Below are positions 37,757 through 61,796 of a stretch of 64,000 nt of DNA, one piece after another. Both the position numbers and the translations under genes were made by a program. The notes beneath the pieces are model-generated. The model made no database searches. It had not been told where the DNA came from and saw nothing but the letters and a program-made list of their open reading frames with translations. Position 1 is the first letter of the stretch. Every line of letters starts with the position of its first letter. The stretch covers positions 2,512-66,511 of the IMG/VR virus record IMGVR_UViG_3300037243_000030, one strand, 5' to 3'. Source of the stretch: a virus (Duplodnaviria; Caudoviricetes).

Positions 37757-37777
37757 AAAATTTCATGAGCCTAATTA

Positions 37778-42790: not shown

Positions 42791-44344
42791 CTATCTCATT
42801 CCCGCCCTATACCGTAATCCTGACTCGGAGAGCATTTCTATTAGCATTGTTGCACCGTCTGCGGCGTCATCATGTTCGTTTTTACCCATAATCACGTACC
42901 CGGTTAAATTATCCATAAACTTCGCGTAATCACTATTCAGCGCATAGTCCGACCGGAACCAAACATGTTCCTTAACGGCGCCAGAAGACAATAATATGCG
43001 TGTTTCTTTGTTCGTTGTGGTAAACGACGGCTGTATTTGTGTTATCGACCGAGCCTTCCATAACTCGCGTTTCAGGTTGTTGCAATAAATCTCGCCGCCG
43101 GCGTTCGATTCCACACGGCACTTACGAACCTTATACCGTTTCAGCATTTCAATAGTTAAAGGCTCCGTCACTGTGATCGGAGCCTGGGTGAATATGCAGT
43201 CAATTATATAAATCCGTGATTCGAACAACACAGCAACCAGCAAACAATAATAATCGGTACCCTTATCGGCTATATCGATTACACCAACAAACGTCTTGTA
43301 ATAATCGCCTTCCGTCTGAATATCTGCCAGTGTAAACCGATTCAGGGATTCGACCGGGAACAGTAGACCTTCGGCAGGTTTGGGGTCTTGCTGGTACATA
43401 GACAGGAAGATAACTTGGTTTTGTTGTTTGATTTCAAGCAATCTCTCGAGCGAATGCCTAGATGGCCATAACGCTTCGCCTTCTAACCGAGGATCTTCTG
43501 TATTGGGTGGTCCTAGTTTAACGGCTGGGAATATTACTTGATGCCACTTTCCTGGCTCCCGTTTTAATATCGTGCCAGCAAGGTCGTCTGGATGCCAGCG
43601 GGTCAGCGTAATTAATTGCTGGCTGTCGTTGTGAAGGCGGGTTCGAAATACCGAGTCGTACCAATCCTGCACGTTTGCGCGTACCGTCGGGCTCCAGGCG
43701 TCCTGGGCGTCTTTATAAGGATCATCTATAATACCAATATCAACGGCGCGACCTGTTAAACCACCACCAACGCCAACGGCTATAAAACTGCCCTTTTTGT
43801 GGAGTATTTCAAACTCTTCAGTAGTACGAATATATCCAGCGCCACGATTCGGAAGTTTGGTGTCTGGATATAATTGCTGATATTTTGGATCTTCGATGAT
43901 TCGCTGAACATCGCGGCCCCATTTAGCCGCAAAAGTTGTGTTATAACTCGCTATAGCGACTTTAAAATTCGGATTATCGCCAAGGAGTTTGGCGGGTAAA
44001 TTAACCGAGCATAACAAACTCTTGCCGTTTTGCGGTGGCATAAACACCATCAACTTCCGAATTTCGCCTCTCGCGAACCTGTCCAGAGCCGCCGCGTATC
44101 TATCGTGATGCCAGTTAACTTGGTATGTGGGCATTGTGTATGTAACGAAGTCGATTAACCGCGTACGAGCGGCATATACTTGCTGTTCCTCAAGTAATTT
44201 AAGGAGTTCTAATTGTTCAGTATCTGACATTGGCATGTTATCACCCCACACCCCCGAATACCAGCAGGGGATAAAAACCATGAATTGGCGCCCGACCTGT
44301 TTGTCATGTAAGTACCCAAACCGTGGTAACAACGTGAATAACAA
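42791..44344 (-). CDS. terL: Terminase large subunit (likely start near 44236)
   Basis: MPPQNGKS (Walker A), GIIDDPYKD (Walker B), DIADKGTDY, HDDAADG nuclease motif. Confidence 0.95.
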   Translation of the reverse strand: MLFTLLPRFGYLHDKQVGRQFMVFIPCWYSGVWGDNMPMSDTEQLELLKLLEEQQVYAARTRLIDFVTYTMPTYQVNWHHDRYAAALDRFARGEIRKLMVFMPPQNGKSLLCSVNLPAKLLGDNPNFKVAIASYNTTFAAKWGRDVQRIIEDPKYQQLYPDTKLPNRGAGYIRTTEEFEILHKKGSFIAVGVGGGLTGRAVDIGIIDDPYKDAQDAWSPTVRANVQDWYDSVFRTRLHNDSQQLITLTRWHPDDLAGTILKREPGKWHQVIFPAVKLGPPNTEDPRLEGEALWPSRHSLERLLEIKQQNQVIFLSMYQQDPKPAEGLLFPVESLNRFTLADIQTEGDYYKTFVGVIDIADKGTDYYCLLVAVLFESRIYIIDCIFTQAPITVTEPLTIEMLKRYKVRKCRVESNAGGEIYCNNLKRELWKARSITQIQPSFTTTNKETRILLSSGAVKEHVWFRSDYALNSDYAKFMDNLTGYVIMGKNEHDDAADGATMLIEMLSESGLRYRAGMR

Positions 44345-44469
44345 CTGTCTAGTTAGACTTATAGACCTTAAATTAAAACTGTCAATAAATTAAAAATTCA
44401 ACTCTAAACTGACGCAATTTAACGACTTACTTGACATCAAGTTAGAGTATACTTTACATTGACACTTTA

Positions 44470-44931
44470 TTAAGTCCCCGGCGGCAACTGTTTAGCCAGC
44501 AGTTCAGTGATTCGTTGTTGCCTTTGCTCGGGCGTCATCGCTTCGAGTTGGATTGGGCCACCAGCAGGGCCGGTAACCTCCTGAGTAGTGACATCTTTCT
44601 GCTCAAGGTACTGTTTACCGAGCCATATCAACATTGTGACGTTGCCGTCCATAGCCGATTCAATCTGTCTCCTACGAAGAGACATTCGTCCACCAGCGGA
44701 CGCCTTTTTGTAGTAATCCGCAAAACCAGCGTTATATTGCTTTTTAACCGCTCTTTCTATTGTGTCAACAGAACAATTAAAAAACGATGCTATTTCTAGT
44801 TGTGTTGCTTGCATATAACACAACTTATCAAACAATTTCCAATCAATCTCTATTGTTGGCCTACCACCTAAGTTTCTTAAATCCGGTAAATTGTCGTCTG
44901 TATTCTCTTCCATACTCTCACCCACAATCAA
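44470..44931 (-). CDS. terS: Terminase small subunit
   Basis: GGRPTIEIDW, EIASFFNCSVDTIER, GNVTMLIWLGKQYLEQKD, EVTGPAGGPI. Confidence 0.85.
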   Translation of the reverse strand: MIVGESMEENTDDNLPDLRNLGGRPTIEIDWKLFDKLCYMQATQLEIASFFNCSVDTIERAVKKQYNAGFADYYKKASAGGRMSLRRRQIESAMDGNVTMLIWLGKQYLEQKDVTTQEVTGPAGGPIQLEAMTPEQRQQRITELLAKQLPPGT

Positions 44932-44978
44932 TTTAAACCTATCTGTTTGCCCCGTAGAGCGATTATAAATATGTTTTA

Positions 44979-45212
44979 TTAAAATACTGCGTGCAGCCCT
45001 GGTTTTTGCTTCCAGACCCCACGACGACCTTTATAAACACCAAGAACATTTCTATTAGGACGCATTAAATCTTTAATAACTCCTTTGGAATCGAAACCCA
45101 AACAAGTTTTCCCTGAGTTGGTTGTTTTAGGATTAGGATGCTTGCATTTGCCATTCGTAACCCACAAACATTCACCACAATCAGCCATTGGAATAAAACT
45201 AACTTCTTTCAT
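44979..45212 (-). CDS. Cys-rich hypothetical protein
   Basis: CGECLW...CKHP...CLGF. Confidence 0.6.
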   Translation of the reverse strand: MKEVSFIPMADCGECLWVTNGKCKHPNPKTTNSGKTCLGFDSKGVIKDLMRPNRNVLGVYKGRRGVWKQKPGLHAVF

Positions 45213-45230
45213 AAAATCCTCTCCCCAAAT

Positions 45231-45315
45231 AAAAAAACCGCCCTTAAAAGGACGGTTTATGTGTTCGTAGACTTTGAACAGTTTAATGATAACATGGAGA
45301 ATATTAAGATTTCAA
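45231..45315 (-). promoter_or_regulatory. Putative late promoter followed by a terminator hairpin
   Basis: TTGAAA-N18-TATCAT with TGn (45315-45286); AAACCGTCC-TTTTAA-GGGCGGTTT-TTTT. Confidence 0.5.
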
Positions 45316-45338
45316 TAAAGTAAACCTCTATTAATTCT

Positions 45339-45752
45339 CTATATTTTTATATTTCTTTTAAAACAATAAATTAATTCGTGTTTCCATTTCCATAAAGTCG
45401 GATATGAAACATTAAGCCTTTCAGCAATAATACTGGGTTTCAATTTCTCCCAATAATACAACTCACAAATCCGTTGCAGTTCCGGTAAGAGCGTGTCGTA
45501 AATCGCCTCCACCTGCCGACATATCACATATGATATATTTTCACTATCGGCATTCCTAATAGCGAATTTTGAAGTTGAATCACTAACATCCGTTCCCCTC
45601 GGCATGTCCAGTGAATCGTAATTAGGAATACAACTAGGCGTAAGGGACAGCATTTCGGTGTCAAGTTTGTATTGCGGGTAGTCCCAGAGAATAGCCTCAA
45701 CAGGATCAGAGTATTTATGTTTGGGACTTGCTATCTTCCAGTTATTATTCAT
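45339..45752 (-). CDS. ArpU/RinA-family late transcription activator
   Basis: VEAILWDYP, SDSTSKFAIR, RICELYYWEK...IAERLNVS. Confidence 0.8.
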   Translation of the reverse strand: MNNNWKIASPKHKYSDPVEAILWDYPQYKLDTEMLSLTPSCIPNYDSLDMPRGTDVSDSTSKFAIRNADSENISYVICRQVEAIYDTLLPELQRICELYYWEKLKPSIIAERLNVSYPTLWKWKHELIYCFKRNIKI

Positions 45753-45906
45753 GGACTAGCCTCCCCTTGTTATTATATCTCTATTATAGTTGTATTTGCG
45801 TTATTTGTAAATACTACTATGTTAACTTATTATTCCAGCAGCCACTGGGACGCGATTTTGTTTTGTTGGGTGTAGTCGAGCATATGTAAATTTCCTCCCG
45901 ACTTAA

Positions 45907-46194
45907 TTAATTACAAATATTAGAGTTTGGTTTATAGAGCAGTTCCAAATCACTAACAAAAACCCATGTTGATTTATTGTTGCTTTTAATAATTGCATAA
46001 GAATGGAATTCGTCTATTTCCACATGGGTTAACATGCCGCAAACCCTATGCCAACTTGAACCAACAATATCGCCAAATTCTATATTGTTTTTTCTTAAGT
46101 GTCTATTGCATCGTTCGGCTGATGAAGGTTGGCAATAATCAAGATCGTCTTGTAATTTTATTTCTGTAATATTAACTTTAGGGTGTTTAAACAT
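45907..46194 (-). CDS. Hypothetical protein
   Basis: 95-aa ORF. Confidence 0.55.
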   Translation of the reverse strand: MFKHPKVNITEIKLQDDLDYCQPSSAERCNRHLRKNNIEFGDIVGSSWHRVCGMLTHVEIDEFHSYAIIKSNNKSTWVFVSDLELLYKPNSNICN

Positions 46195-46198
46195 TATT

Positions 46199-46495
46199 TT
46201 ACTCCCTGATCGCTAATTTATCTAAATCAACATGCTTATATCGATCATGTTCCTCGGCTTGTTTGGCATCGTTAAAGCTGGTGATCTCACTGAGGTAGCC
46301 CGTTATCCGCCGAATCCTGATAATCGGCGACCGTTCCTTACATCTCACTTCGACGTACTCCCCATCAACCACAATTTCAGCCCGATCAATAGGTTTCTTC
46401 CAGATTTTTAACTCCTGTTTGATATATTCAGTCGCCTCTTCGAGAGTCATTTCTGCGGGGTAAATGGTGGTGATGCCAAGTATAATATTTTGCAA
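46199..46495 (-). CDS. Small protein matching the anaerobic RNR (NrdD) C-terminal glycyl-radical segment
   Basis: RIRRITGYLS...FNDAKQAEEHDR. Confidence 0.8.
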   Translation of the reverse strand: MQNIILGITTIYPAEMTLEEATEYIKQELKIWKKPIDRAEIVVDGEYVEVRCKERSPIIRIRRITGYLSEITSFNDAKQAEEHDRYKHVDLDKLAIRE

Positions 46496-46731
46496 TTGAT
46501 TGCCCTCCCAAATATAGAATGAATAGCGCGATGATAAACCAGGGGAATAGGTTGACGTAGATGATTAGGCGGAGCCAAGCAGTTAAAGTCATAAAATAAC
46601 ATCATCTTTGTTAGACTCGTTTAATAATCCGTGGGTTAAAGTTTTAATCATATTTTTGTCATTGTCGCTAATAATGTTTTTAATAATTAACACCATCAAT
46701 AACGCTTCCACAATGGCTTCCTCGCGTGACA

Positions 46732-47448
46732 TCACAGCACCCCCGCTTCCCTTAGTTTATTGAGCGCACTCCGTAATGGTTCAAACTCAAATTCTAATGC
46801 TTCAATTTCATCGCATTCATCAAAACTATTCATAGTTGTATAAGCGTCTTGCGGGGCTAGGGCTTGCTGGGCTATTGCATACACCTTGCGCTCATCCCAG
46901 TCTAATATTGACGCGCGTTGATCTTTATAAATTAAGTAAATCTGGCTTAATGCTTCTCCCAACACAGCAATCCTCTGTTCCTTGGCGGCAAGCTGCTCTT
47001 CTAAATCGCGCCACTTGTGGTCAGCTTTCATGAATTTTTCTTGAAATCGCCGCATATCAGCATAATCTCTTTCTGCTTCTTTTGTTTTGGCGGCAATCTG
47101 CTGCTCTGCTGCTTTCGCTTTTTTGCGTAGTGCTTCGCAAATCATAATATGGGCAACATCGTCTCGAATTTGTGTTTTTTCATATTCTTGGCACCGCTTT
47201 TGCATTTCGGCGTTTTGCTGTTTTAATCCAGCAATTTCCCTGCAATCAATTATAGCTTCATCACGGTATCCGCTGTTCATAAGTTGAACTTCTTTGATTT
47301 TTTCTTGCAGTTCATCGTTTTCGGTACGAAGTTGATGTACCTCGCGTAGATATGGCAGCACCATTTCAGACCATCTTGATCTATTGCCGGTAGCGGTAAT
47401 GTCAAGGACAAATTTTTCTATATCTTTGATTAATTCATCTAGATTCAC
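46732..47448 (-). CDS. Coiled-coil hypothetical protein
   Basis: 238 aa heptad-rich. Confidence 0.7.
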   Translation of the reverse strand: MNLDELIKDIEKFVLDITATGNRSRWSEMVLPYLREVHQLRTENDELQEKIKEVQLMNSGYRDEAIIDCREIAGLKQQNAEMQKRCQEYEKTQIRDDVAHIMICEALRKKAKAAEQQIAAKTKEAERDYADMRRFQEKFMKADHKWRDLEEQLAAKEQRIAVLGEALSQIYLIYKDQRASILDWDERKVYAIAQQALAPQDAYTTMNSFDECDEIEALEFEFEPLRSALNKLREAGVL

Positions 47449-48113
47449 CCGCGCTCACCCCTCTGCTCCTCGTATTTGGCTAATGCATCACGAAGTTTTA
47501 TTTTATCACTTGTCAATACTCCACCATGTTCTTCATAATTTATAACTTCTTTAGCCGCCTCCGCCACATTTACAGCCAGCAGGAGATATGCGCTCATACT
47601 GGGATTATGCTCCCAGGTTAATTCATATCCATCCAAACTTTTCGCGTACTGTAGCCGTTTTAAGTGAGTTTGCCTAACAATATCCCTGTAGAGTTTTTCA
47701 TCCGTTTTTGCTATATCATCAGTAGTATCAATATTATCAAGTAAGTCCCATAGTTTTTCTGCTACTTTTAGATTAGCCGCACATTCCGCCACTTTGTGTT
47801 TTAGATGGTTTTGGACTCGTTCAAGGTTGTTTTTATACGCCTGGTTGTCGGCTTCAAGCTGGGCTATGCGGTTCTGCTTTTCTAATAGCTGCCTTCCAGC
47901 ATCTCGTATACCTGACTTTAACTGTGTTATCTGACCTGTCATAACTTTGCTATCACGAATTAAATCTGTTAAATTTTCTCTATGCTGTTGCCGCGCCTGT
48001 TCGCTTGCTTTTAATTGTTCGCGCAGTTTTTCCTGTTCTAAAAAAAATCCACATTTTGTATAATTACAGTCCAAATCATTCGACCTCCTCTGTATGTGTT
48101 GGGTCGTTCCCAC
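47445..48113 (-). CDS. Coiled-coil hypothetical protein (likely start TTG 48074)
   Basis: ORF; GAGGAGG upstream of TTG. Confidence 0.65.
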   Translation of the reverse strand: MGTTQHIQRRSNDLDCNYTKCGFFLEQEKLREQLKASEQARQQHRENLTDLIRDSKVMTGQITQLKSGIRDAGRQLLEKQNRIAQLEADNQAYKNNLERVQNHLKHKVAECAANLKVAEKLWDLLDNIDTTDDIAKTDEKLYRDIVRQTHLKRLQYAKSLDGYELTWEHNPSMSAYLLLAVNVAEAAKEVINYEEHGGVLTSDKIKLRDALAKYEEQRGERG

Positions 48114-48351
48114 ATTCAGGGCATTTATGAATAGTTCCGCCTTTTTTTGAATACATATTTTTCATTTTATCAAGTCGGCGTTGATCTAATTCATTAATCA
48201 TTGTTACCACCTTTTTTAACTACTACCAAATCTAAACATTTCTTGCAAACCTTAAATTCTTTGCCATTATATTTATTTTTAATTGTGCCAATTGCCCGAT
48301 ATTGTTCACATAATTGGCATTTTAATTCACATACTTTATCTGCTGGGCATA

Positions 48352-48627
48352 TCATTCGCTCTCGCCTCCCAATTCTTCCAGCCTACGTATTGTTGCCGCT
48401 AAGGTGCAGTAACCACTATGCCCATAATTTTTACCATAGTGACATACTGGGCAAAAACTTAAGCCAGTTTTATTTTCGTCGCTACACCATTCTAATTTTT
48501 TAAGTTCATCCAGCGCCATTTTTAGCGCGGCTGTGTATTTATCCGCACAACATTTATTTAATTCTGAACAACTATATCCGCATTGGCTCATCCCATATCC
48601 TCCCCCTCGCTCAAAGTTGGAACACAC
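48352..48627 (-). CDS. Hypothetical Zn-binding protein
   Basis: CPVCH...H..YC. Confidence 0.6.
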   Translation of the reverse strand: MCSNFERGGGYGMSQCGYSCSELNKCCADKYTAALKMALDELKKLEWCSDENKTGLSFCPVCHYGKNYGHSGYCTLAATIRRLEELGGESE

Positions 48628-48636
48628 TCAATTCGA

Positions 48637-49104
48637 TTAATCAGTGCCATCCTGCTCACTCTCCCATTCCCAAAGTCGTTGCTTACCTTTCGCCGGTACC
48701 GGATCAATCCGGCGCACGTTCGCCAGTATCCAGGCATAGCGACCAGGAGTGTAGTCGCCTAAAGCGAGTTCGTTGCCTTTAATAATCTTGCTAGTGCTTA
48801 ATTCTGCTTTGAAAGGCAAAATTATTAATTTTGTGGTTCCGCTTATACGATCACAATATTGATGTTTTACCTCAACACAGTCCACTAAGTCAGCAATGGC
48901 AATCACAAATCCAAGCGGAACGTCTTGGACAATAACTAAGCCAGCATCGTTAAGACGTTGTCTTGTTATTTCCAGATCAATCCGCTTCCCCGCATGTATC
49001 GCCAGTGGCCCCCGGTAGTTCGTCGGCCAGGAACGCGTTTCAATTTGCTTCGCGCCAATGGCGATCAGCGACGCCCAGGGCTGCAATATTGTTAAGGCTT
49101 TCAT
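48637..49104 (-). CDS. ASCH domain protein
   Basis: MKALTILQPWASLIAIGAKQIETRSWPTNYRGPLAIHAGK. Confidence 0.92.
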   Translation of the reverse strand: MKALTILQPWASLIAIGAKQIETRSWPTNYRGPLAIHAGKRIDLEITRQRLNDAGLVIVQDVPLGFVIAIADLVDCVEVKHQYCDRISGTTKLIILPFKAELSTSKIIKGNELALGDYTPGRYAWILANVRRIDPVPAKGKQRLWEWESEQDGTD

Positions 49105-49228
49105 AATTCACCCCGCCTTTTCCTTATATCTTTGGGCTCTCCGGATTTCTGGGTTGATAAATATTTTTTGGTCAACATAAGATTAACCATCCCCTTAAAA
49201 AAAAAATTAATTTATTTTGATTTATGTA

Positions 49229-49257
49229 TTGCATTTATTATTGATATATGTTATACT
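49229..49257 (+). promoter_or_regulatory. Sigma-A promoter inside cassette A
   Basis: TTGCAT-N17-TATACT with TG extension. Confidence 0.75.
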
Positions 49258-49279
49258 TAAATCAATAAAAGGATTGGAG

Positions 49280-49801
49280 ATGACAAAAATGAAAGCGACT
49301 CGGACAGTAACCTGGACCACGAAAGACGGCAAAACCGCTGAATGCAAAATCGAGATTACCCGCGAAATACAAGAAAACATCTCTTATTCTGACGGGTGGA
49401 ACATCAACCTCGGTCCAGAAGAAATAAAAAGCACCTATATTGAGTTAAGAGTTAACGGTAAATATGTAGCTCGCGATCTTGGGAATATATCTCCAATAAC
49501 AAAAGAAGGATACCGCGCGACTTACGACAAAATGGTTGCTGCTGGTGTATATGCAAGACTAGGTGATGTATACATCAACCGCGAAAATTACGAAAAGATT
49601 ATGGCCGCTATCACCGAAGCAACCACTGAAGCCGAACAAGATGCCGAATACATAGCTTACAAAGCGACCCCTAAAGCAACCAAAATCCACGATAATAACA
49701 TCATAGTTGATGACGGAAATTACGATTATGACTCAGAAAATCATGGCCCAGGTTGGTGCAATAAATGCCATAGTTATTGTTGGGGAGATTGCGAAGCCTA
49801 A
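49280..49801 (+). CDS. Hypothetical passenger protein
   Basis: GGAG then ATG; ends GWCNKCHSYCWGDCEA (Cys cluster). Confidence 0.75.
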   Translation: MTKMKATRTVTWTTKDGKTAECKIEITREIQENISYSDGWNINLGPEEIKSTYIELRVNGKYVARDLGNISPITKEGYRATYDKMVAAGVYARLGDVYINRENYEKIMAAITEATTEAEQDAEYIAYKATPKATKIHDNNIIVDDGNYDYDSENHGPGWCNKCHSYCWGDCEA

Positions 49802-49850
49802 ATAAAATTGCCGAGCCGGGCGGCTAATCTCGGCGAAGGGAGCGATAAAA

Positions 49851-50279
49851 ATGAAAAAACTCATTGGATTAAAAGGCGGTCAAGATGCGACATTTTGGGA
49901 AATTATTAGCAGCCAAGAATGCGAATTAGTTAAATATCCGTCTATCAAAAACGGTAAAGAAGTCCCTTTTACCCTCGGAATGTCCGACGCAGAATTACAA
50001 GAGTTTATGGCGAACAAACAAAAGGTTGGGTATCATGGTTATAGGCTTATTATCGCGGGGAATCCAATTTGCGCGGAAGATACGTTGAAAGAAATGGGAT
50101 ATGACGCTTTTAGTAACGCACCAAATTCTGTTGATATTTATGATCCTCGCGGCGGCGAACGTCCTAACTCAGGCAGGCCAGCAACGGGCGCAATGCCCAC
50201 TAAGGCAATAAGGATGGCTGAAGATGAATATATCAAAGTTAAAGAATTTTTAACTCAACTTCGTCAACCGTCCAAATAG
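49851..50279 (+). CDS. Passenger protein with C-terminal RHH-like DNA-binding tail
   Basis: RGGERPNSGRPATGAMPTKAIRMAEDEYIKVKEFL; followed by hairpin AACCGTCC/GGGCGGTT. Confidence 0.75.
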   Translation: MKKLIGLKGGQDATFWEIISSQECELVKYPSIKNGKEVPFTLGMSDAELQEFMANKQKVGYHGYRLIIAGNPICAEDTLKEMGYDAFSNAPNSVDIYDPRGGERPNSGRPATGAMPTKAIRMAEDEYIKVKEFLTQLRQPSK

Positions 50280-50291
50280 GGCGGTTTCCTT

Positions 50292-50768
50292 TTATGTCGC
50301 CTTTATTTCAACCCTAAAATCCGAAGAGCCGGAATTATCGTTATAGCATTGTTCAACCATTTCTCTTTTTGAACGCCTAACGCTTTCGGCCCACCTAACA
50401 CCCGTTAAGACTAATCTTCCTTTGCCGCCTCCTTCTTTTAATATCGCGCAACAATATCTCATGTGTCTAAGAGGAGGTAGTTTTTTTGCTTCAATCAATT
50501 GCCACATACTTTTCTTTGGCTTATGCACTTCCACATCTTTGTGATGCTCCCGGATAAAACACACCAGTTCCGGAGGATCAACCGTAGTAAGGTTGTAGTG
50601 ATAGTCTGCCTTGACCCCTGACCGCTTTACAAGGTCTTTAACTACACAACTATCCTTGCCGCCCGAGAACGCCACGTAATACCCTTCTGGCGGCTCAAAT
50701 TGGCGTATCCGGTCAATGGCTATCTGTACTTTATCAACCACGCCAAATAGCGTATGCTCAATCAGCAT
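50292..50768 (-). pseudogene. Truncated PAPS-reductase family protein
   Basis: AFSGGKDS, RYCCAILKE, TGVRWAESVRR; frame enters the cassette IR at 50330 and stops; C-terminal part absent. Confidence 0.8.
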
Positions 50769-51598
50769 TAACCCTCCCCCTCTTCCTCTCTCCTGCTGTT
50801 GTCCTCGATTTCAGCGATAGCCGCTAGTATTGGGTATATCTGTTGTGGTACTACTGTTCGTCCGAGCGCGGCAGTTCTGTCCACCCCACCGGATAACCCA
50901 TATACCACTCTAGCCAATCCGGGTTCAGATTCCCACCTAAAACTGTCGCCAATCCGTTTCCCGAATGTTCTGATGCACCTTTGCGATTGTAATTCCCGTG
51001 AACCGTTAGTGTAGGAAGTAGTTTTAATCCCTGAATTAATTTCATAGAATGTTTCGTTTTCCCGTTGTATTCCTTGCCCTTGATATCCCCACAGGTCGCA
51101 TCGAACGCGGTCAGAGTTGGCAACAATGAATACTCTATCCCGTCTATGCCACGCGTCAACGGCGCAAGCCGGTAAAACAAACGCTTGTGATTCGTAGTTG
51201 ATATTCTCCAAATCATCAAACACCGCGTCGATTCCCAAGGATATATGGCCACCAACATTTTCGCCAATAACCCAAGTCGGCCTGATTTCTGATATAATTC
51301 TAAACATTTCCGGCCAGAGATATCGATCATCTGCCGCGCCTTTTCTGTTCCCGGAAGTACTAAAAGGTTGACAAGGGTATCCGCCGGCCACAATGTCAAT
51401 TCCTGTGATTCCTGCATTATCTAGCACCTCCTTGGTCAGTTTCTTCACATCATCGAATATCGGCACGTCAGGCCAATGTTTCTTTAGCACCTTCTGGCAA
51501 AATGGTTCAATCTCGCAAAACGCCACCGTCTCAATTCCTGCCCACTGTGCCGCAAGATCGATTCCGCCTATGCCTGAGAACAACGAGAGCATTTTCAT
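50768..51598 (-). CDS. DNA cytosine-C5 methyltransferase, alpha chain
   Basis: LSLFSGIGG (I), GGYPCQPFS (IV), GENV (VI), HRRDRVFIVA (VIII), ALGRTVVPQ (X). Confidence 0.92.
   Translation of the reverse strand: MKMLSLFSGIGGIDLAAQWAGIETVAFCEIEPFCQKVLKKHWPDVPIFDDVKKLTKEVLDNAGITGIDIVAGGYPCQPFSTSGNRKGAADDRYLWPEMFRIISEIRPTWVIGENVGGHISLGIDAVFDDLENINYESQAFVLPACAVDAWHRRDRVFIVANSDRVRCDLWGYQGQGIQRENETFYEINSGIKTTSYTNGSRELQSQRCIRTFGKRIGDSFRWESEPGLARVVYGLSGGVDRTAALGRTVVPQQIYPILAAIAEIEDNSRREEEGEG
50851..51417 (-). CDS. DNA cytosine-C5 methyltransferase, beta chain (overlapping frame)
   Basis: LLPTLTA twice; GGNLNPDWLEWYMGYPVGWT (motif IX, missing from the alpha chain). Confidence 0.8.
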   Translation of the reverse strand: MQESQELTLWPADTLVNLLVLPGTEKARQMIDISGRKCLELYQKSGRLGLLAKMLVAIYPWESTRCLMIWRISTTNHKRLFYRLAPLTRGIDGIEYSLLPTLTAFDATCGDIKGKEYNGKTKHSMKLIQGLKLLPTLTVHGNYNRKGASEHSGNGLATVLGGNLNPDWLEWYMGYPVGWTELPRSDEQ

Positions 51599-51745
51599 TT
51601 GTTGTCCTCCAGCGCGGCGAGTGCCTTCTCTAATGCCCACGCGCCGCAATCACACTTTTTTGTGTTATCTTTTTCAAGTTCACAATTCCAATGATGAGAT
51701 ATATCACCCTTAAAATTATTGTAAGCCTCAACCAGCGCCTCGTAT

Positions 51746-52012
51746 TTATCCATGTGTGCCTCCAAATACGTGCATATTCATAACCTTCATTACGAAACTG
51801 CAAAATCTCTCCATTTCCTCGGGCGGTCGTTTTTTGCGTGTAATCTGCCGATCATACGAGCTTAATCCTAAGATTGTTATTTTGGATTCAACCGCCCTGC
51901 GTGAACGTCCCAGTGTTTTGGCGATTTCATTTACTTTGACGTGGTTAGCATACAGATTTTTAAGCTGGGTAAATTCCGCTTCTGACCAATTCATTTCACA
52001 TCCCCTCCTCAA
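51746..52012 (-). CDS. Small HTH (Myb/SANT-like) protein
   Basis: WSEAE...LKNLY...EIAKTLGRSRRAVESK. Confidence 0.7.
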   Translation of the reverse strand: MRRGCEMNWSEAEFTQLKNLYANHVKVNEIAKTLGRSRRAVESKITILGLSSYDRQITRKKRPPEEMERFCSFVMKVMNMHVFGGTHG

Positions 52013-52346
52013 ACCGCCAGTGATAACCGCCGCACGTTGATCTCTTAAAGTGGCAACACTTACATATTCCTTCAGGCTTGACGCCTGTTATTTTTGCCGC
52101 TTCAATACCAGACTTAAATATAACGCCGTCCGATCTAACGACTTTTTTCTCGCGGTATGCGTGGTCAATGTGCCGGAATCCACCCCAACCAGTTCCGCCA
52201 TTGGGTATTAAATTTAACGTGCGCCCGATGCTCCGAACGCTGGAGTAACTTATTTGCATACGCTTGGCAATGATTTTATTAGTTAAGCCTTGCGTGTGCA
52301 GCTCGCAGTATTGATTTTGATAGTGGGTGTTATCGGATATTTTCAT
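51996..52346 (-). CDS. HTH plus NUMOD1-type DNA-binding protein
   Basis: GVIFKSGIEAAKITGV...ICKCC...CGGYHWRF. Confidence 0.75.
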   Translation of the reverse strand: MKISDNTHYQNQYCELHTQGLTNKIIAKRMQISYSSVRSIGRTLNLIPNGGTGWGGFRHIDHAYREKKVVRSDGVIFKSGIEAAKITGVKPEGICKCCHFKRSTCGGYHWRFEEGM

Positions 52347-52347
52347 T

Positions 52348-52482
52348 TTAGCGCCCCCAGCTTAAAGTAATTACCGCAAATCCACCAACAGCAATCCCCC
52401 AAACATATTGACATTGCGAAGTAATATGCTCGTTTACACAAAAACCTGCGATTATAATCGCGAGCCATACAATCCACTTCAT
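52348..52482 (-). CDS. Small membrane protein (44 aa)
   Basis: MKWIVWLAIIIAGF...WGIAVGGFAVITLSW. Confidence 0.5.
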   Translation of the reverse strand: MKWIVWLAIIIAGFCVNEHITSQCQYVWGIAVGGFAVITLSWGR

Positions 52483-52856
52483 TTCAGCCCTCCTAATAAT
52501 CGAATTAATTCCTTTCCAAACGGTTCAATTAACTTCCGATGTTCGCCGTATTGTTCTTGACTGTCCCATCCAACCTTTCCTTGCACACACCACGTTTCCG
52601 TGATAGTTTCCCATCCTTCGGGTTTAATCACTGCGGCAACACGATATTTGGTTCCGTCGTTCGGAATTAATACGGCTCCGGTGTTACGCGCAATCATTAA
52701 CGCCGATGACAAATCTGCGCTGGCCCGAGACATTAAAAACAACCATTTTTCAGAATCTCCCCGACTATATACCCCGTAATTATCCCAAAACTCAACTCCA
52801 CCAAAATATTTCCACGGGTTCGATTGTTCGGTGGGGGAGGCTAATGGCGGGATCAC
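52479..52856 (-). CDS. Hypothetical protein
   Basis: 125-aa ORF. Confidence 0.65.
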   Translation of the reverse strand: MIPPLASPTEQSNPWKYFGGVEFWDNYGVYSRGDSEKWLFLMSRASADLSSALMIARNTGAVLIPNDGTKYRVAAVIKPEGWETITETWCVQGKVGWDSQEQYGEHRKLIEPFGKELIRLLGGLK

Positions 52857-53005
52857 ATTTCACTCCAGATTCGAAGAAGCATATCGGAAATTAAGTTTAT
52901 CGAGCAATCACCACTTTTAAATAATGCACAATTGTTATCACACGTTTTTGGGGTAAACGGACACGTTTTTATCATTTATATCACTCCTACATTATGTTAA
53001 TAAGA

Positions 53006-53110
53006 TAGTTAGGTAGTTAGGTATATATTTTTTTTCAGTAAAGTCCTCTTATGAAGAAATTAATATTGAAAAGTTTCCGAAATGCAAATAATAACCTAAC
53101 TACCTAACTA
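53006..53110. repeat. Inverted iteron pair, putative replication origin
   Basis: TAGTTAGGTAGTTAGGT (53006-53022) and its exact reverse complement (53094-53110) around an AT-rich spacer, just after the primase. Confidence 0.7.
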
Positions 53111-55549
53111 ATAAGGTAAATTACCCTTATCCATAAAAACGACTTCGCCCTTACTGTCATTTGAGTCTGTGCGGTTTTCTGCTCTTAATCCGATTCCGTG
53201 AAACTTTGTGTAATTACCAGTGCTAATTTTCTTTAAAAAGCCTTTTTTCTCTAAACTATCAGTGAAATCTTTACGTTTTATACGTACATTTTCATCATAA
53301 ATCTCTATCCAAGACCGAAAATTGGTATATAATTCACCTACATTTCCACTTGCAAGAGGATTTATGGTACACTTATCGCTCATCCATAGCTCAATATAGT
53401 CGTTTTCTTTCTGGTATGCTTTTGTTGCTTGAACCACTTCGTCTGGTGGTTGTAAACCAAATTTGTTCCATTCCAGGCAACCTTCGATTAACCAATTTAA
53501 GATCCCCGACTTCTCTGTCTCTGCCCTTAATTTTGTTTTTAGTCCTTTGTCTTGACTGTTACCGACGAATGTTTTTACAAAGGGCAGAAGTTGAATTCGT
53601 TCCCAAAGTGCGAAGTCTTCTGGGCGGGCAGTTGGTTTGTCGTTAGTCATTAAAACTAGTTTAAATTGGGGCAAAAACTCGAAGGTTTCTTGATAAAGGA
53701 ACCTGGCTGCCATTCGATCCTGGCCGGTCATTTGTTTAATTAATGCCTCGTCAAACTGACAACCCTTACCGCCTTCGCTCGCCACCACATACCGAGCCCC
53801 CCGCAGACGCGCCACGTCGTTTGATATCCCTTCGTTCTTCTTCTTCATAATTGTGGCGGTCGGTGTGGTTTGGGCGTAGTCTCCGAGCATGTCCAGGATT
53901 AATTCTAAGAGAGTGCCTTTGCCGTTGCGGCCATAACCAAATGCGATAATGAACTGTTGCTCACGGGTTTCTCCTGTTAAGCAATACCCTAAAAATCGTT
54001 GCACAAATTTAATAATGTTTTGGTTATCGTCGAATGTGCTACTAAGAAAATTTTCGAACGTGGGACACTTGGCCTCGGGCTTATAAGTAACAGGAGCCAG
54101 TTTTGTTGCGTTGTTTTTGGGGTCCGGTGCCATCAGTTTACCTGTTTTTAAATCAAGGGTTCCGTTTTTTACGTTTAATAACCAGATATCAGAATCAAGT
54201 TCAATTATTGATACCGGCATCATGTGTTGCGCCAGTATAAGCATTGCGTTCACCCTTGGAAGTGACTCTGATTTTTTAGCATGTGAGAGTAGCGCATCTC
54301 TAACATCTGGGTTATCAATACCTGCGGCATCGCCATACATAGACCGGACACATTTCTTGGCAAATGCCATAATGGCGCCACTGTCATCGATTTTCCACCT
54401 GGTCCCGTCCCACACTAACCATTTACCATACTGAGTGCAGTATTTTACTTGACCATCAAACATTCGTGTGAACCGTTCGGCGTTGCCTATGTCAGTTAAC
54501 TTCTCGAATCCGGGTTCGGTACCAGTTTCGGGGTCTGGTTTCTTCCCTTTCTTTCTTGACAGCGCGAACGTCACCGGATTTTTCACCTGGCAGCCTTCCG
54601 GGGGACAGCCGGCGAATCCGATAGACCGGATATATTCGCACGACTGCGGGGCCGGATTACTGCGGGCGTGGACGTATTTACGGTCGGTTTCCCGTATGGA
54701 ATACCGGGAATAATTACGGGATAAATCATGACAGGCTTCGAGTCCGTCCTTACACCGGGAAAGGTTGGTTAGTGCGGCGTACCATAAGGGTTCCGGTAGG
54801 TCGGCGGCGTTATCCCGGCAATGTTGCATAAATATACATTGACTGAATACTATGGATGCGGGGCCGTCTGTCGGACGTGATTCGAATATTTTGCCACATA
54901 TTTTAGTCAGGTCCGCGTCTGTGGAATCTGGCAGGGACGAATCGAAATCATCCGGATTGTACCTCACGGCGGAGGAATGGATTACTTTGACCGGGACCGG
55001 ATCAAATTTATAATTCTGGGTACCAGGCAGCCGTAATATCCGGCAGAGGTCGGCGGTTTTATCGAATTTCCATTTATGAGTTGCCGCCCGGGTTAAAATG
55101 TGATTCTGAAACCGGGATAATATGTCTGCCGCCCGAAGCCGATCTTCCGATATATCCCACGCCTCGCGGAATAACCAGTACCCGTGGAGCCCATGCCCGG
55201 AATCGACGAGGATCGATGGCAGGAATTCCTCACCGCGCAGGAAATTGATAACGTCCTGATTGGTGGCGGGTACGTTTTTTTTGGTCGGCGACTGGATATC
55301 GAAGTCGAACCAAAGGCCGGGAATACTGGTCACAGTATCGTTTGATGTGCGGCGAGTTGAAGATTTTTTATCCTGGGCGAGCCCGACGCCGAAATACACA
55401 TCCCGTGATAGGTTGGATAATTCGATGGCTTTGGCGGCGATGGCCGGGAGGTTCGAGATGGGGAACCAATAAGTTTTCTCGTCCTGCCGGGTCCATAGGG
55501 TAAGGTAGCCGCTGGTGTCGGGATAAAGTTGGTTGAGGAAGTCGATCAT
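53108..55549 (-). CDS. P4/D5-family primase-helicase with N-terminal RepB-like primase domain (start 55549)
   Basis: VDSGHGLHGYW, DLCRILRLPGT.NYK, TDIGNAERF, GYGRNGKGT (Walker A), ASE. Confidence 0.92.
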   Translation of the reverse strand: MIDFLNQLYPDTSGYLTLWTRQDEKTYWFPISNLPAIAAKAIELSNLSRDVYFGVGLAQDKKSSTRRTSNDTVTSIPGLWFDFDIQSPTKKNVPATNQDVINFLRGEEFLPSILVDSGHGLHGYWLFREAWDISEDRLRAADILSRFQNHILTRAATHKWKFDKTADLCRILRLPGTQNYKFDPVPVKVIHSSAVRYNPDDFDSSLPDSTDADLTKICGKIFESRPTDGPASIVFSQCIFMQHCRDNAADLPEPLWYAALTNLSRCKDGLEACHDLSRNYSRYSIRETDRKYVHARSNPAPQSCEYIRSIGFAGCPPEGCQVKNPVTFALSRKKGKKPDPETGTEPGFEKLTDIGNAERFTRMFDGQVKYCTQYGKWLVWDGTRWKIDDSGAIMAFAKKCVRSMYGDAAGIDNPDVRDALLSHAKKSESLPRVNAMLILAQHMMPVSIIELDSDIWLLNVKNGTLDLKTGKLMAPDPKNNATKLAPVTYKPEAKCPTFENFLSSTFDDNQNIIKFVQRFLGYCLTGETREQQFIIAFGYGRNGKGTLLELILDMLGDYAQTTPTATIMKKKNEGISNDVARLRGARYVVASEGGKGCQFDEALIKQMTGQDRMAARFLYQETFEFLPQFKLVLMTNDKPTARPEDFALWERIQLLPFVKTFVGNSQDKGLKTKLRAETEKSGILNWLIEGCLEWNKFGLQPPDEVVQATKAYQKENDYIELWMSDKCTINPLASGNVGELYTNFRSWIEIYDENVRIKRKDFTDSLEKKGFLKKISTGNYTKFHGIGLRAENRTDSNDSKGEVVFMDKGNLPY

Positions 55550-55568
55550 TGTTTTACCCCTCTCCGGG

Positions 55569-55724
55569 TCACGCGTATTTCTTATCCGGGCATTTCTGAT
55601 ATGTGGGAGATTTGCGGTTATTGATACACTTGGCGCAGTTCTCCCGGCAGTCACGGTCGGGATTTTTCTTGCAGAGCGCGGGCGGTTTCGTGAATCGGCA
55701 GTTGTCGCAGACACAATTCGTCAT
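55569..55724 (-). CDS. Small Cys-rich protein (51 aa)
   Basis: MTNCVCDNCRFTKPPALCKKNPDRDCRENCAKC... Confidence 0.5.
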   Translation of the reverse strand: MTNCVCDNCRFTKPPALCKKNPDRDCRENCAKCINNRKSPTYQKCPDKKYA

Positions 55725-55727
55725 ATT

Positions 55728-55991
55728 TCAGTCCTCCGGCGCCACAGGCGGTGATTTAACGTAATTGTCCGGCCCGTAAGGTAATCCCATGGCTTTGTCT
55801 ATTATGCGGTCCTGGATAACTGAGGGGTCGGTAAGTTCGAACATTTGAATTTGAGTCAGCGTAAGTTGGTGGTCCTGTTGGGATAAATCCGCCTGGAGTT
55901 CGTGGAGCTGGTGCCATGTAATGAGGTTAAGCGCAAGCAAACACATTATGGCGATTGTTAATAATTTTATGGCTGATTTTAGTCGTTGCAT
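55728..55991 (-). CDS. Membrane-anchored hypothetical protein
   Basis: N-terminal TM helix then coiled coil. Confidence 0.6.
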   Translation of the reverse strand: MQRLKSAIKLLTIAIMCLLALNLITWHQLHELQADLSQQDHQLTLTQIQMFELTDPSVIQDRIIDKAMGLPYGPDNYVKSPPVAPED

Positions 55992-56302
55992 TTTTGTACC
56001 TCCGGATATTTGATTGATATCCCATGCTGTTTCGCGTACACAATCTCCCTACAGCACCCCTCGGACTCCCAGTACTTCCCATGTACCCACAGTTCGTCCG
56101 CCAATTTCAATAAATTAAAACATAACTCCATGCCATGTTCGGCGTCATATTCCACTGGGTCCACGAATGAAAAATTGTGGATTGGGGATAATGGTAAAAT
56201 ATCGGGGGTGTCGATTAGGGCCTGCCGGATTATGGCGGCGATTTTTTGTTTGTTTTCTTCGACGGAATTACGGAGGGGGTGGGCGAAGTATACGCGTTTC
56301 AT
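55979..56302 (-). CDS. DUF4406 / nucleoside 2-deoxyribosyltransferase-like protein
   Basis: VYFAHPLR, LSPIHNF, LLKLADELWVHG...SEGCCREI..A. Confidence 0.75.
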   Translation of the reverse strand: MKRVYFAHPLRNSVEENKQKIAAIIRQALIDTPDILPLSPIHNFSFVDPVEYDAEHGMELCFNLLKLADELWVHGKYWESEGCCREIVYAKQHGISIKYPEVQKCND

Positions 56303-56532
56303 ATTCGACCCTCCCCATCAATGCACCGAATCAATTTCACAGCCATGGCCGCAACCTGAATCGCTTCCTCTCTAGCGCGTTGTGAAGTTTCGTGGAAGAT
56401 CGCTTGTTCAGTCTCAAGGTATTCTTCTCTTAAAATAGCCAAGCCCTCATGACTACTATTAAATGGCGGAAACTTTTGATTAGCAGATTTTAATTCATTT
56501 ACAATTTCTTGAATTATGGTTGATATGCTCAA
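56299..56532 (-). CDS. MazG-like nucleotide pyrophosphohydrolase
   Basis: HEGLAILREEYLET...REEAIQVAAMA. Confidence 0.7.
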   Translation of the reverse strand: MSISTIIQEIVNELKSANQKFPPFNSSHEGLAILREEYLETEQAIFHETSQRAREEAIQVAAMAVKLIRCIDGEGRI

Positions 56533-57174
56533 TTAATTTAGCTCCTCTTTTTTATAAAATTTGGATCGTAAAGGAGTTAATAATGCTTTACTTATTGGCC
56601 AACCCCGAGCAATTCTTGAGTTTAAAGTTCTTACATTAATTTTGAAAATTTGCGCCCATTGCCCAATAGTTTTAAATTGCCCATTAAACTCCAATAAACA
56701 GGTAGTTCTTTTATTGTTTGCTTGTTCTTCATTTGTAGCCCAATGACAATTTTCTTTACAATAGTCGCCATTATTATTTTTACGATCCAATGTCGTTCCT
56801 GGGGGTCTTTCCCCCATGTCACGGAAAAAGGTTTTAAATGAATTTCTCCACTCTTCACAAACTTTTATACCCCTTGAGCCATAAATACGATATCTATTAT
56901 TATTTGGTTTATAACAACGTGAAATCATACTTTGCCATGAATAATAAGTGGGGGTTTTGCTTTTACCGTTTGCTCTCTTAATAAGGCATCCACAAGATTT
57001 CGTATGTCCATTTTTTAGATTTTCACCATTTATAACTATTAAGTTGCCGCAATCACACCGGCATTTCCATTGAGTTTTATTATTTTTTCTGTTGTCTAAA
57101 TTTAGGACGATTAATTTACTGAATCTTTGACCAGATAAATCAATTACATGTTTCATATTTACAACCCTCGTCAA
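56533..57174 (-). CDS. Free-standing HNH homing endonuclease
   Basis: DLSGQRFSKL, WKCRCDCG, SCGC, YGSRGIKVC, LDRKNNNGDY..ENCHWAT. Confidence 0.9.
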   Translation of the reverse strand: MTRVVNMKHVIDLSGQRFSKLIVLNLDNRKNNKTQWKCRCDCGNLIVINGENLKNGHTKSCGCLIKRANGKSKTPTYYSWQSMISRCYKPNNNRYRIYGSRGIKVCEEWRNSFKTFFRDMGERPPGTTLDRKNNNGDYCKENCHWATNEEQANNKRTTCLLEFNGQFKTIGQWAQIFKINVRTLNSRIARGWPISKALLTPLRSKFYKKEELN

Positions 57175-57180
57175 AGATCA

Positions 57181-57681
57181 TTACTTCCCCTCCCGCAACA
57201 TCCCCCGCATAATCAAGCAGTAATTGGCCACATCCTGCAGGCGTTCGTCTACTTCGTTCCCGGTGACACCGGTATGGGATAATGCCACCAGATGTTTGTC
57301 AGCCAGCGTCAGGGCCACCAGAAACATGAGTTCCTTCTCGTCCACCGTTACGCCGTGTTTTTCCATAAATGGTTTCAGTACCCGGTTCGCTGTTTTCCGG
57401 AAATTCGAGAACGCATCTGCGTCCGCGCCGTATTCGGTGTTTTTATAGGAGAATAGTTTTTTGATGTCGTCTGTTGATTTGGCTATGAATTCGGCTAATT
57501 TTTCACGGGTGGTGACGTGGGATTCTGGCCCGACCCCCGCCTCCCCGTTGTATCTGTGCCAGCAGGACATACAATAATTTAACCGCCGGTCTTGTAAGTT
57601 TTTTCCGCAGATTTTACACGTTTCGCTCATTTCGCACCTCCAATAATTCGAATGGCGTCTTCCACACACCATGCAATACAA
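57181..57681 (-). CDS. Nucleotide-modification-associated (Nmad1/DUF1599-like) protein
   Basis: KNTEYG..DAFSNF...DKH...ERLQDVANYCLIM. Confidence 0.65.
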   Translation of the reverse strand: MYCMVCGRRHSNYWRCEMSETCKICGKNLQDRRLNYCMSCWHRYNGEAGVGPESHVTTREKLAEFIAKSTDDIKKLFSYKNTEYGADADAFSNFRKTANRVLKPFMEKHGVTVDEKELMFLVALTLADKHLVALSHTGVTGNEVDERLQDVANYCLIMRGMLREGK

Positions 57682-58037
57682 GTTACCGCGCCAGCATTGT
57701 CCATTTGTTTTTGAAAATTTATCTGAATCGGTTTTACTGTGTCGCCTGGTGCCTTTACTTCAATAAATCCAACTCTCGCAAATTTCGTCCCTACCATGTC
57801 GGGAGTTATAATTGTCGGTATGATTATCAGTAGGTCGGCGAATCCGGGGGGGAGCCCTTTTACGCGATTTGCATCTTCCAAAACCGTGTATGTGTGTTTG
57901 CCTCTTACTTCGCGTTTCATAAACTTTCCGCCCCAAAAATCTCCTGCGTTAGTCCGGTATGGTATTACTTTGCCTTTAGATACTCGGGATATTTCTAGTT
58001 CAATTTCGGCAGTTAGGTTGGTGCCTTTGGTGGCCAT
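57627..58037 (-). CDS. VRR-NUC domain nuclease
   Basis: GFADL, FIEVKAPG...Q..F. Confidence 0.85.
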   Translation of the reverse strand: MATKGTNLTAEIELEISRVSKGKVIPYRTNAGDFWGGKFMKREVRGKHTYTVLEDANRVKGLPPGFADLLIIIPTIITPDMVGTKFARVGFIEVKAPGDTVKPIQINFQKQMDNAGAVTCIAWCVEDAIRIIGGAK

Positions 58038-59458
58038 TATCTCAACCCTTTCTCTCCCTTAATCCTGGCCCAATCTTTATGTAGTTGGGACCAGGTAAAA
58101 CTAATGTGTTTTGCTTTACATTTGAATTCCACCCAACCCTTGGCGTAATTTCTAGTTATAGCGATTTCCGTTAATTCGGTCTGGTCACGGCACATTCCAA
58201 CTTCCATCCTCGCCGTTTTCTTCTCCATCGCCATAAACTCCACCAGGGTTCCGGCTTCCTCGGCTAACTGCCGGGGGGTCATTACATATTCGTGCTGACA
58301 ATACGGGCATTTCGGTGATGGGGGGTGGACGGCGAAACACTGGGGACATTGACGGATACTCACTGTCGGGCCGTCGGCTTGGCGACGTTTCTTTATGCCG
58401 TCCAGTGACCACTCTCGATCTTCATCAACTGCTCCATGTCTAAAAACATTGCCCACACAATCCAAAATAACAGCTTGTTTTTCTGGGTTTTCCGGGTCGC
58501 GTCTTAATGGGCGCATAGCCTGTTGCAGAAAAAGTGTGGTCGATTGTGTGGGGCGTAGTAAAATTACCGCTTCCATTGTTGGAACATTAAAGCCTTCCGA
58601 CACAAGCTCACAATTTGTCAAAATTCTTATTCGTCCCGCTCGGAAATCTTCAATTATTCGCTTACGTTCTTCCCGTGGGGTTTCACCGTCTATGTGCCTA
58701 CTTGGAATATTTGCGGCATTAAATCCTTCGGCTGTATGTATGCTGTGATCCCTACTAACACAATAGGCGATGGCTTTTTTGCCTGCGGCTAGTTGCTGGT
58801 AATGTTCTACCGCATTTCCTGTTACAACACTCTTATCCATTCTTATGGCAAGTTCTTTTGTGTCATAGTCGCCCATTTTAATTGTTATGCCTTCGAGATT
58901 CGCTACTGGTGGAGGTGCGAAATACCGAAACGGAGATAAGTGGCCGGCAGCGATTAGTTCTTTTGTGGTCGGCCCTAAAATCAAAACGTCGCTAACTTCT
59001 TTTAATCCCTGGTTTCCGAGTCTTTGCGGAGTTGCAGTAAGTCCCACGACATAAGCATCCGGCCAGTAGTTAAAGATATTTAGCCACGTTTTTGCAACAG
59101 AATGATGGTGTTCATCGGCTATGATTAGTTGAGGTTTTTGTGCTTTGCTTAATCGCCGACTTAACGTTTGGACACTGGCGATTTGGATTAAATCATCGGT
59201 TTCCTTAAATCCAGGAGCAATAATACCGTAATTAACACCGATTTCGTCAAAAGTTTCTGCAGTTTGGGAAATTAATTCAACCCTATGGACTAGAAAAATT
59301 ACTCGGTTGCCTCTTTTTGCTGCTTCATTTGCCATAAATACGATTAAGACCGTTTTTCCTGAGCCACATGGCGATGTGAAACAAATTTTACGATAGCCAG
59401 ATTGGAAGGCGGCACGAATATCACTAATGGCCTTGATTTGATAACCGCGTAATTGCAT
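58037..59458 (-). CDS. DEAD/DEAH-box (SF2) helicase
   Basis: SPCGSGKT, IADEHHH, GLTATP, SEGFNVP, QQAMRPLR, C-terminal Zn finger. Confidence 0.93.
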   Translation of the reverse strand: MQLRGYQIKAISDIRAAFQSGYRKICFTSPCGSGKTVLIVFMANEAAKRGNRVIFLVHRVELISQTAETFDEIGVNYGIIAPGFKETDDLIQIASVQTLSRRLSKAQKPQLIIADEHHHSVAKTWLNIFNYWPDAYVVGLTATPQRLGNQGLKEVSDVLILGPTTKELIAAGHLSPFRYFAPPPVANLEGITIKMGDYDTKELAIRMDKSVVTGNAVEHYQQLAAGKKAIAYCVSRDHSIHTAEGFNAANIPSRHIDGETPREERKRIIEDFRAGRIRILTNCELVSEGFNVPTMEAVILLRPTQSTTLFLQQAMRPLRRDPENPEKQAVILDCVGNVFRHGAVDEDREWSLDGIKKRRQADGPTVSIRQCPQCFAVHPPSPKCPYCQHEYVMTPRQLAEEAGTLVEFMAMEKKTARMEVGMCRDQTELTEIAITRNYAKGWVEFKCKAKHISFTWSQLHKDWARIKGEKGLR

Positions 59459-59925
59459 GTATTAATGCCTCCTGCCGTGACAACCCTCTTTTGTTCATGC
59501 CATACCAAATAATAGAACTATTTAACTTATACTGCCGTATCCAATCTGCTTGTATTTTTGTTTCACCATTAAAGGTTAATTTTTTAATGCGAGTGGTATT
59601 TTTGTTTTGTTCAGATCTTGTTATAAAACAACAATTACTTGGTGAATAACCTAGATTATTATTTTTACGTTCAATAGTTAAATTATCTTCATATCCATGA
59701 GTAAGTGCCCAATTTACAAAAACGTGAATATCGTTGCGCCATTCATCACATACTTTTATCCCTCTGCCACCATAATCAGAATAGCCTTTACATTTAGCGT
59801 TATAACATCTTCTTAACATAGAGCGGTATATTCCATAGATCCTTGTATTAGATAAACCGTGGGTCCTACATGCCTTTCGAGCCAAATCGAAATATTTTTT
59901 ACTATTAATCATGGCGTATTCTTTT
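59424..59925 (-). pseudogene. HNH endonuclease, C-terminal fragment
   Basis: THGLSNTRIYGIY..M..RCYN...YGGRGIKVC.EW...IERKNNN; N-terminus replaced by the cassette B end. Confidence 0.8.
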
Positions 59926-61792: not shown

Positions 61793-61796
61793 TTTC

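Follow-up and report, generated by a model that had tools for sequence, protein, structure and literature searches.

The replication and early region of the phage described here contains two short cassettes, A (49135-50330) and B (59926-60381), which are both enclosed by inverted repeats of the type found at the ends of ISL3 insertion sequences. Each carries cargo genes, neither carries a transposase, the phage genes next to them are truncated and target duplications are absent. These cassettes are probably non-autonomous derivatives, with the build of a mobile insertion cassette, of a clade of ISL3 elements that carries passenger genes, and deletions adjacent to their ends would have followed. 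All coordinates refer to the window, the stretch of 64,000 nucleotides that was analysed.

The window makes up most of an IMG/VR record of 66.5 kb which is closed by direct terminal repeats. A tyrosine integrase gene is present in the record, and the phage is therefore considered temperate. All genes around the cassettes lie on the minus strand in a replication and early block that includes genes for ASCH-like, PAPS-reductase-like, C5 methyltransferase, D5_N/DUF5906-domain (primase-type), helicase, HNH endonuclease and SSB proteins, while the ORFs of cassette A lie on the plus strand. The phage has no close relatives: the closest helicase relative is at most 40% identical. A megablast of 48600-51000 against GenBank phages gave zero matches, and exact look-ups of the flanking proteins returned the same gene arrangement only. 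A reading of the cassette region as an RNA element seems unlikely; an Rfam scan of 48000-61500 gave nothing at E <= 0.1. Two further repeat structures were observed in this part of the genome. At 53006-53110 two inverted arms of 25 nt, 88% complementary, spaced by 55 nt and made of TAGTTAGG units, reach the start of an 868-aa ORF (D5_N/DUF5906, primase-type; 53108-55714, minus strand); from their sequence, they may be an origin or an operator. A tandem repeat with a 15-nt unit and at least 11 copies begins at 63736 and extends to the window end at 64000.

The cassettes are delimited by a 23-bp motif, of which a motif scan found four copies arranged as two inverted pairs, 49135-49157 (+) with 50308-50330 (-) and 59926-59948 (+) with 60359-60381 (-), with 0-2 mismatches. 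Dinucleotide shuffles give an expectation of 0.00 matches, and the whole 66.5-kb record holds no 23-bp copy beyond these four. A fifth copy, consisting of a 16-nt core only, is found at 59988-60003 (+), 55 nt inward of the left end of cassette B. Between cassettes A and B, the left ends are 88% alike over 40 nt (49129-49168 and 59920-59959), and the two right ends 96% alike over 25 nt, with 22 of the 23 repeat positions identical; left and right ends differ from each other at 3-4 of 23 positions. The likeness of the left ends includes an inner extension, so that each left end can be drawn to 34 nt (49135-49168 and 59926-59959, both +), and it also reaches 5-6 nt beyond the repeat into an outside part that is T-rich. 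The inverted pairs described in a first-pass annotation of this DNA, with the same orientation at both sites and differing cargo, are thus real.

One might ask whether such repeats are operators or promoters belonging to the phage itself, with a merely coincidental resemblance to IS ends. The TTGA of the repeat is usable as a -35 box, and in cassette A the TTGA of the left repeat forms the -35 of a weak, inward promoter-like site (49154-49183) that overlaps the end. However, every 23-bp copy belongs to an inverted pair that marks the borders of a cassette, and none is placed in front of another operon. Homology of the adjoining genes stops at the outer side of the repeats, and in unrelated genomes this sequence delimits transposons that are flanked by target duplications. 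A regulatory origin is therefore very improbable.

The identity of these transposons was obtained from complete elements in other genomes. A scan for the repeat pattern in one genome per prokaryotic species gave 17 matches, a number close to chance expectation, and several of the 17 are ends of ISL3 elements. Across complete ISL3 elements, 19-23 of the 23 positions are shared with the cassette ends, and the right end of cassette A is identical at 23 of 23 positions to an end of complete elements in a Bacillota metagenome-assembled genome (MAG) and in a metagenome contig. The Bacillota MAG element (L132:2203-5672, equal to G001:C4:125702-129171) is intact at 3,470 bp and is flanked by a perfect 8-bp duplication (AAAATAAA). 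Compared with the right end of cassette A, its inverted ends agree at 22/23 and 23/23 positions. Its 448-aa transposase contains the domains Zn_ribbon_ISL3, HTH_Tnp_ISL3 and DDE_Tnp_ISL3, and its passengers are a SacI-type restriction enzyme and a D12 adenine methyltransferase. As an observation in its own right, this element is a transposon-borne restriction-modification system, with genes for a HicB-like antitoxin and a resolvase adjoining. The element in the metagenome contig JAEHJW020004075.1 (L138:7361 and L133:1-3009) has the same ends, an 8-bp duplication that is an A-run, a 443-aa ISL3 transposase, and an N6/N4 methyltransferase and a 301-aa ORF as passengers. On a third contig (L137:5371-7846) the same end is followed by small passenger ORFs, which occupy 2.1 kb before an ISL3 transposase starts, and on an Acidimicrobiales contig the motif directly abuts the C-terminus of an ISL3 transposase.

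These data agree with published ends. The ISL3 elements ISArsp7 and ISPst2 begin likewise and have 8-bp duplications (PMC6305408 Table 3), and an ISL3-derived MITE also combines the same end start with 8-bp duplications (PMC11448079). The first-pass annotation had assigned the repeats to ISL3 and had proposed that the assignment be checked by comparison with known IS families; it holds, with the same 23-mers bounding elements that encode ISL3 transposases and are flanked by 8-bp duplications. Another of its arguments treated a frame that reads out through one end as characteristic of ISL3; this point does not hold, since in the related autonomous elements the transposase frame stops short of the repeat.

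From the autonomous relatives, it was also evident that the two ends of such an element are not equivalent. In three of them, the end distal to the transposase has a second copy of the core about 45 nt inside, with a promoter after it, and the order of parts is distal end (terminal repeat, subterminal core and promoter), passengers, transposase and proximal end. The placement of passengers between distal end and transposase suggests an ISL3 clade in which a slot for passengers is a regular feature. In the phage, the left ends look distal and the right ends proximal, because cassette B has a subterminal core copy (59988-60003), comparable to that in the distal ends of the three relatives, and cassette A has the inward promoter-like site. 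The layout of cassette A is that of the autonomous relatives minus the transposase. Scans of prokaryotic genomes and metagenomes found no autonomous element with the left-end variant of the cassettes.

Searches of the complete phage with the PF01610 profile and with the MAG transposase as query found no ISL3 transposase. Transposase domains are likewise absent from the cargo ORFs, and no DDE_Tnp_ISL3 lies between the repeats. Both cassettes are therefore non-autonomous, which is what the first-pass annotation had suggested from the letters of the DNA. When 40 kb of phage sequence (positions 20001-40000 and 44001-64000 of the window) were compared with the Bacillota MAG, the 25-bp repeat was all that they shared, and the motif was not found in other genomes of the order to which this MAG belongs.

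Cassette A is a self-contained unit of two genes, 1,196 bp in length. Inside the left end, a second promoter-like site (49229-49257, +; TTGCAT, a spacing of 17 nt, TATACT), which was recognized by reading and lies below the scan threshold, precedes ORF1 (49289-49801, +; 170 aa). ORF2 (49851-50279, +; 142 aa) follows, and a hairpin terminator-like site (50266-50296, +; hairpin at 50266-50286) just inside the right repeat (50308-50330, -) ends the cargo operon. The description of this cassette as a complete expression unit, with promoter, two genes and terminator between the ends, is thus borne out by plus-strand ORFs, promoter-like sites and a hairpin. In ORF1, the N-terminal domain, which is conserved among its homologues, is rich in beta structure; helices are also present, and four cysteines form a conserved motif at the C-terminus. 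Neither ORF1, ORF2 nor the small ORF of cassette B matched Pfam, PHROGs or PADLOC; an AlphaFold model of ORF1 (pLDDT 81) gave no Foldseek match at E <= 0.001 and a best VIA-align Z of 5.9, which is at background level; and the ESM Atlas gave zero leads above 0.8. On visual inspection, the C-terminal part of ORF2 resembles a ribbon-helix-helix regulator. This likeness found no support in the tests, and the only hint is a weak NikA-like match (E 0.024), which belongs to the partner gene of one ORF1 homologue.

More was learned from the genomic company of the cargo. ORF1 has about 15 homologues, 35-49% identical, all in prophage-like contigs, where they neighbour lysis or repressor genes at prophage ends. 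A second small gene comes after each of them, though only in some cases is it homologous to ORF2; homologues of ORF2 are 57-62% identical, and one adjoins an ORF1 homologue. ISL3 ends were found around none of the approximately 15 ORF1 homologues. Since the homologues sit in prophage-like contigs without such ends, the cargo of cassette A is regarded as a phage accessory unit of the moron type. One of these prophage-like contigs (L142:2122-5727) encodes Csf1 and Csf3 (type IV CRISPR-associated) and has a PAPS-reductase-like gene directly upstream of its ORF1 homologue.

Cassette B is smaller, with a length of 456 bp, and contains, on the minus strand, the tail of a gene without its head together with a small orphan gene. 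The tail (60212-60358, -) comprises 48 codons without a start and shares 56% identity with a 98-aa protein, over residues 49-91 of the latter; it is cut precisely where it reaches the inner side of the right repeat (60359-60381, -). The small ORF (60034-60231, -; 55-65 aa) contains cysteines and has a good ribosome-binding site; a homologue search gave none, and a candidate assignment to DUF6906 was rejected on testing. A 20-codon ORF (59905-59967, -), which starts inside the cassette from a strong ribosome-binding site, reads outward through the left repeat, and the stop codon of this ORF overlaps the ATG (59912) of the adjoining HNH remainder. Cassette B may therefore provide translational coupling for the truncated endonuclease.

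The junctions of both cassettes with the phage coincide with broken genes. On the left of cassette A, the ASCH-like gene (phrog_3193; 48637-49104, -) adjoins the cassette with its start 30 nt from the repeat. On the right, the PAPS-reductase-like gene (50331-50768, -) has relatives of about 260 aa, with which its residues 1-146 share 72-78% identity; homology ends with residue 146 at base 50331, immediately beside the repeat. The conserved C-terminal portion of about 113 residues is gone, and the final 12 codons of the called ORF (50292-50768, -) come from the repeat instead. Full-length relatives have no repeat-like sequence at the break point. At cassette B, an HNH/AP2-type homing endonuclease gene is split: its N-terminal part of about 22 codons, which has a GQKFGRLT motif, ends at the right repeat (60383-60448, -), and the remainder (59424-59912, -; phrog_3377, E 6e-47) resumes at the left repeat. 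Compared with an intact paralogue in the structural region (25604-26281, -; 34% identity to the split gene), about 25-40 codons are absent between the two pieces.

At both cassettes, the 8 bp outside the left end are unlike the 8 bp outside the right end, and there is therefore no target duplication at A or B. These observations uphold two statements of the first-pass annotation, that the PAPS-reductase frame is cut at the right end with its C-terminal part missing and that target duplications are absent; the truncated genes beside both cassettes are in keeping with its further statement that these sit in deletions. A canonical ISL3 insertion is left unsupported, because neither cassette has an 8-bp duplication. 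The left flanks are T-rich and resemble the target sites of autonomous copies, while the right flanks lie within coding sequence. Taken as sequence features, these flanks weakly suggest that the right junctions arose secondarily.

Repeats can mislead assemblers, and junctions of this kind might be thought to be assembly chimeras. Against this, both junctions of cassette A are 100% identical between the window and Logan assemblies of two sequencing runs, so that they are not a chimera of a single assembly, and the record is closed by direct terminal repeats. An artefact of assembly deserves almost no weight.

How the cassettes arrived, what caused the deletions and whether the cassettes still move are matters of inference. 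In the proposed mechanism, insertion would have taken place during the prophage state, after binding of the repeats by the transposase of an ISL3 element resident in the host; alternatively, a full element may have been inserted, with loss of the transposase gene afterwards. A later deletion starting at the outer edge of one repeat would then have removed one copy of the 8-bp duplication together with neighbouring phage DNA, that is, the 3' half of the PAPS-reductase gene in one case and 25-40 HNH codons in the other. Such a deletion could result from intramolecular attack by a transposon end or from recombination between two copies. It is proposed that the PAPS-reductase and HNH genes were dispensable and that the phage survived for this reason. 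Several points count against reading the cassettes as ISL3 derivatives of this sort. Both lack the 8-bp target duplication; two separate end-adjacent deletions must be assumed; the cargo of cassette A occurs elsewhere without ISL3 ends; the Bacillota MAG has only the repeat in common with the 40 kb of phage compared; and neither a second copy, an empty site, an autonomous element with the left-end variant nor another phage with these ends was found.

The lack of duplications and the replacement of flanking sequence by each cassette can also be explained without a transposase. The ends, though derived from ISL3, would then serve as portable linkers for module exchange, with short-homology or illegitimate recombination at these 23-40 bp placing the cassettes, and with co-resident phages or two copies of an element as partners. 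The cargos of A and B are both phage-type genes, the region encodes an SSB and a helicase, and the likeness of the left ends continues 5-6 nt outside the repeat, all of which fits this explanation. However, that outside likeness is T-rich, as at ordinary ISL3 target sites; no partner phage or element with these ends was found; and in the version with two copies, the HNH gene would have had to receive two earlier insertions no more than about 100 bp apart. Placement by recombination is thus unlikely.

A different question is whether the cassettes can still be recognized by any existing transposase, or whether they are decayed, old ISL3 insertions, of interest only as immobile scars that inactivated two phage genes and as bearers of a fixed accessory operon. 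The 3-4 of 23 positions at which left and right ends differ, the truncated gene inside cassette B, the single copy of each cassette and the failure to find a cognate element with the left-end variant are all in keeping with such fossils. This is in contrast to the right ends, which are identical at 22-23 of 23 positions to the ends of intact elements with fresh 8-bp duplications, and to the better conservation of the ends than of everything between them. We regard complete immobility as possible, though doubtful.

The first-pass annotation had put forward a shuffling of cargo in the early region by a host transposase acting in trans, and further copies and the ancestral site were looked for with this proposal in view. 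Exact-pattern scans of IMG/VR (2.9 million viral contigs) with the full repeat and with the extended left end found no other phage, and no further cassette copies were found in viral contigs, genomes or metagenomes. The first-pass annotation had suggested looking in related phages for empty alleles; no empty site was found among relatives of the PAPS-reductase, ASCH and helicase genes. Relatives of the PAPS-reductase reach 80% amino acid identity and yet are non-syntenic, those of the ASCH gene are at most 50% identical and those of the helicase at most 40%, and for these reasons the ancestral site is not reconstructable.

If the derivation from passenger-carrying ISL3 elements is extended beyond this genome, the clade with a passenger slot would be a regular vehicle for the accessory genes of temperate phages. 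Host transposase would move moron-type units from phage to phage, and replacement would be the typical outcome, keeping the genome within its packaging limit. Insertion would here be coupled to an end-adjacent deletion, hence the lack of a target duplication. This extension is speculative, and the chance that it is correct seems slight.

The acquisition of morons by phages is mostly explained through illegitimate recombination. Two gene sets between the ends of one transposon family present a concrete, testable route for accessory genes into phages, and the cassettes link this entry to a little-described ISL3 group which carries restriction-modification genes in bacteria. With their absent duplications and truncated flanking genes, they are also a natural case for the study of deletions mediated by transposon ends where genome size is limited. 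Phage genomes seldom contain insertion sequences or elements derived from them (PMC11602168; PMC3429520). The value of the finding is limited by its origin in a single genome.

Among known systems, mobile insertion cassettes (MICs), of which MIC231, derived from IS231 of Bacillus cereus, is reportedly an example, are like the phage cassettes in having IS-type terminal inverted repeats, passengers, no transposase and presumed mobilization in trans. Tn3-derived MICs and TIMEs are described as well (PMC4337579, PMC4133298). Unlike MIC231 and the Tn3-derived MICs, the phage cassettes have an ISL3 parent and are found in a phage genome, without a target duplication and beside deletions. A second group of relatives is that of passenger-carrying ISL3 elements such as ISPpu12 and the three elements reported above. 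They have the same type of ends and a passenger slot between distal end and transposase, a layout kept in cassette A, but the transposase gene was lost from the phage cassettes or was never present. ISPst2 is likewise an ISL3 element with two passenger genes (PMC6305408 Table 3).

Smaller non-autonomous elements offer further parallels. An ISL3-derived MITE of Microcystis aeruginosa is non-autonomous, and the first 9 nt of its ends are the same as in ISL3 ends (PMC11448079). This MITE is non-coding and multicopy, with 8-nt duplications, whereas the phage cassettes are coding and single-copy and lack duplications. Viral MITEs and MPME1/2, which are mobile elements of mycobacteriophages, are small non-autonomous elements in phage genomes as these cassettes are; however, those elements are short and for the most part lack coding sequence, or they contain one ORF that belongs to the element itself, whereas the cargo here is an expression unit of phage origin. 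MITEs in viral genomes are rare, with a frequency of 0.2% of the viruses surveyed (PMC11602168). MICs, passenger ISL3 elements, ISL3-derived MITEs and rare viral MITEs are already described, and no description of ISL3-bounded, cargo-bearing cassettes without transposase in a phage was found in the literature.

Two systems of phages themselves complete the comparison. A phage moron is a unit of promoter, gene and terminator inserted between phage genes, normally without transposon ends. The cargo of cassette A is similar in being an autonomous unit from promoter to terminator in an accessory position, but transposon ends flank it. The PeSL cassettes of T4 are direct repeats of promoter and stem-loop, which act via recombination and are proposed drivers of module shuffling. 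Both these and the repeats of the present phage are short sequences bracketing variable genes of the early region, and the difference is that here the brackets are inverted ends of an insertion sequence.
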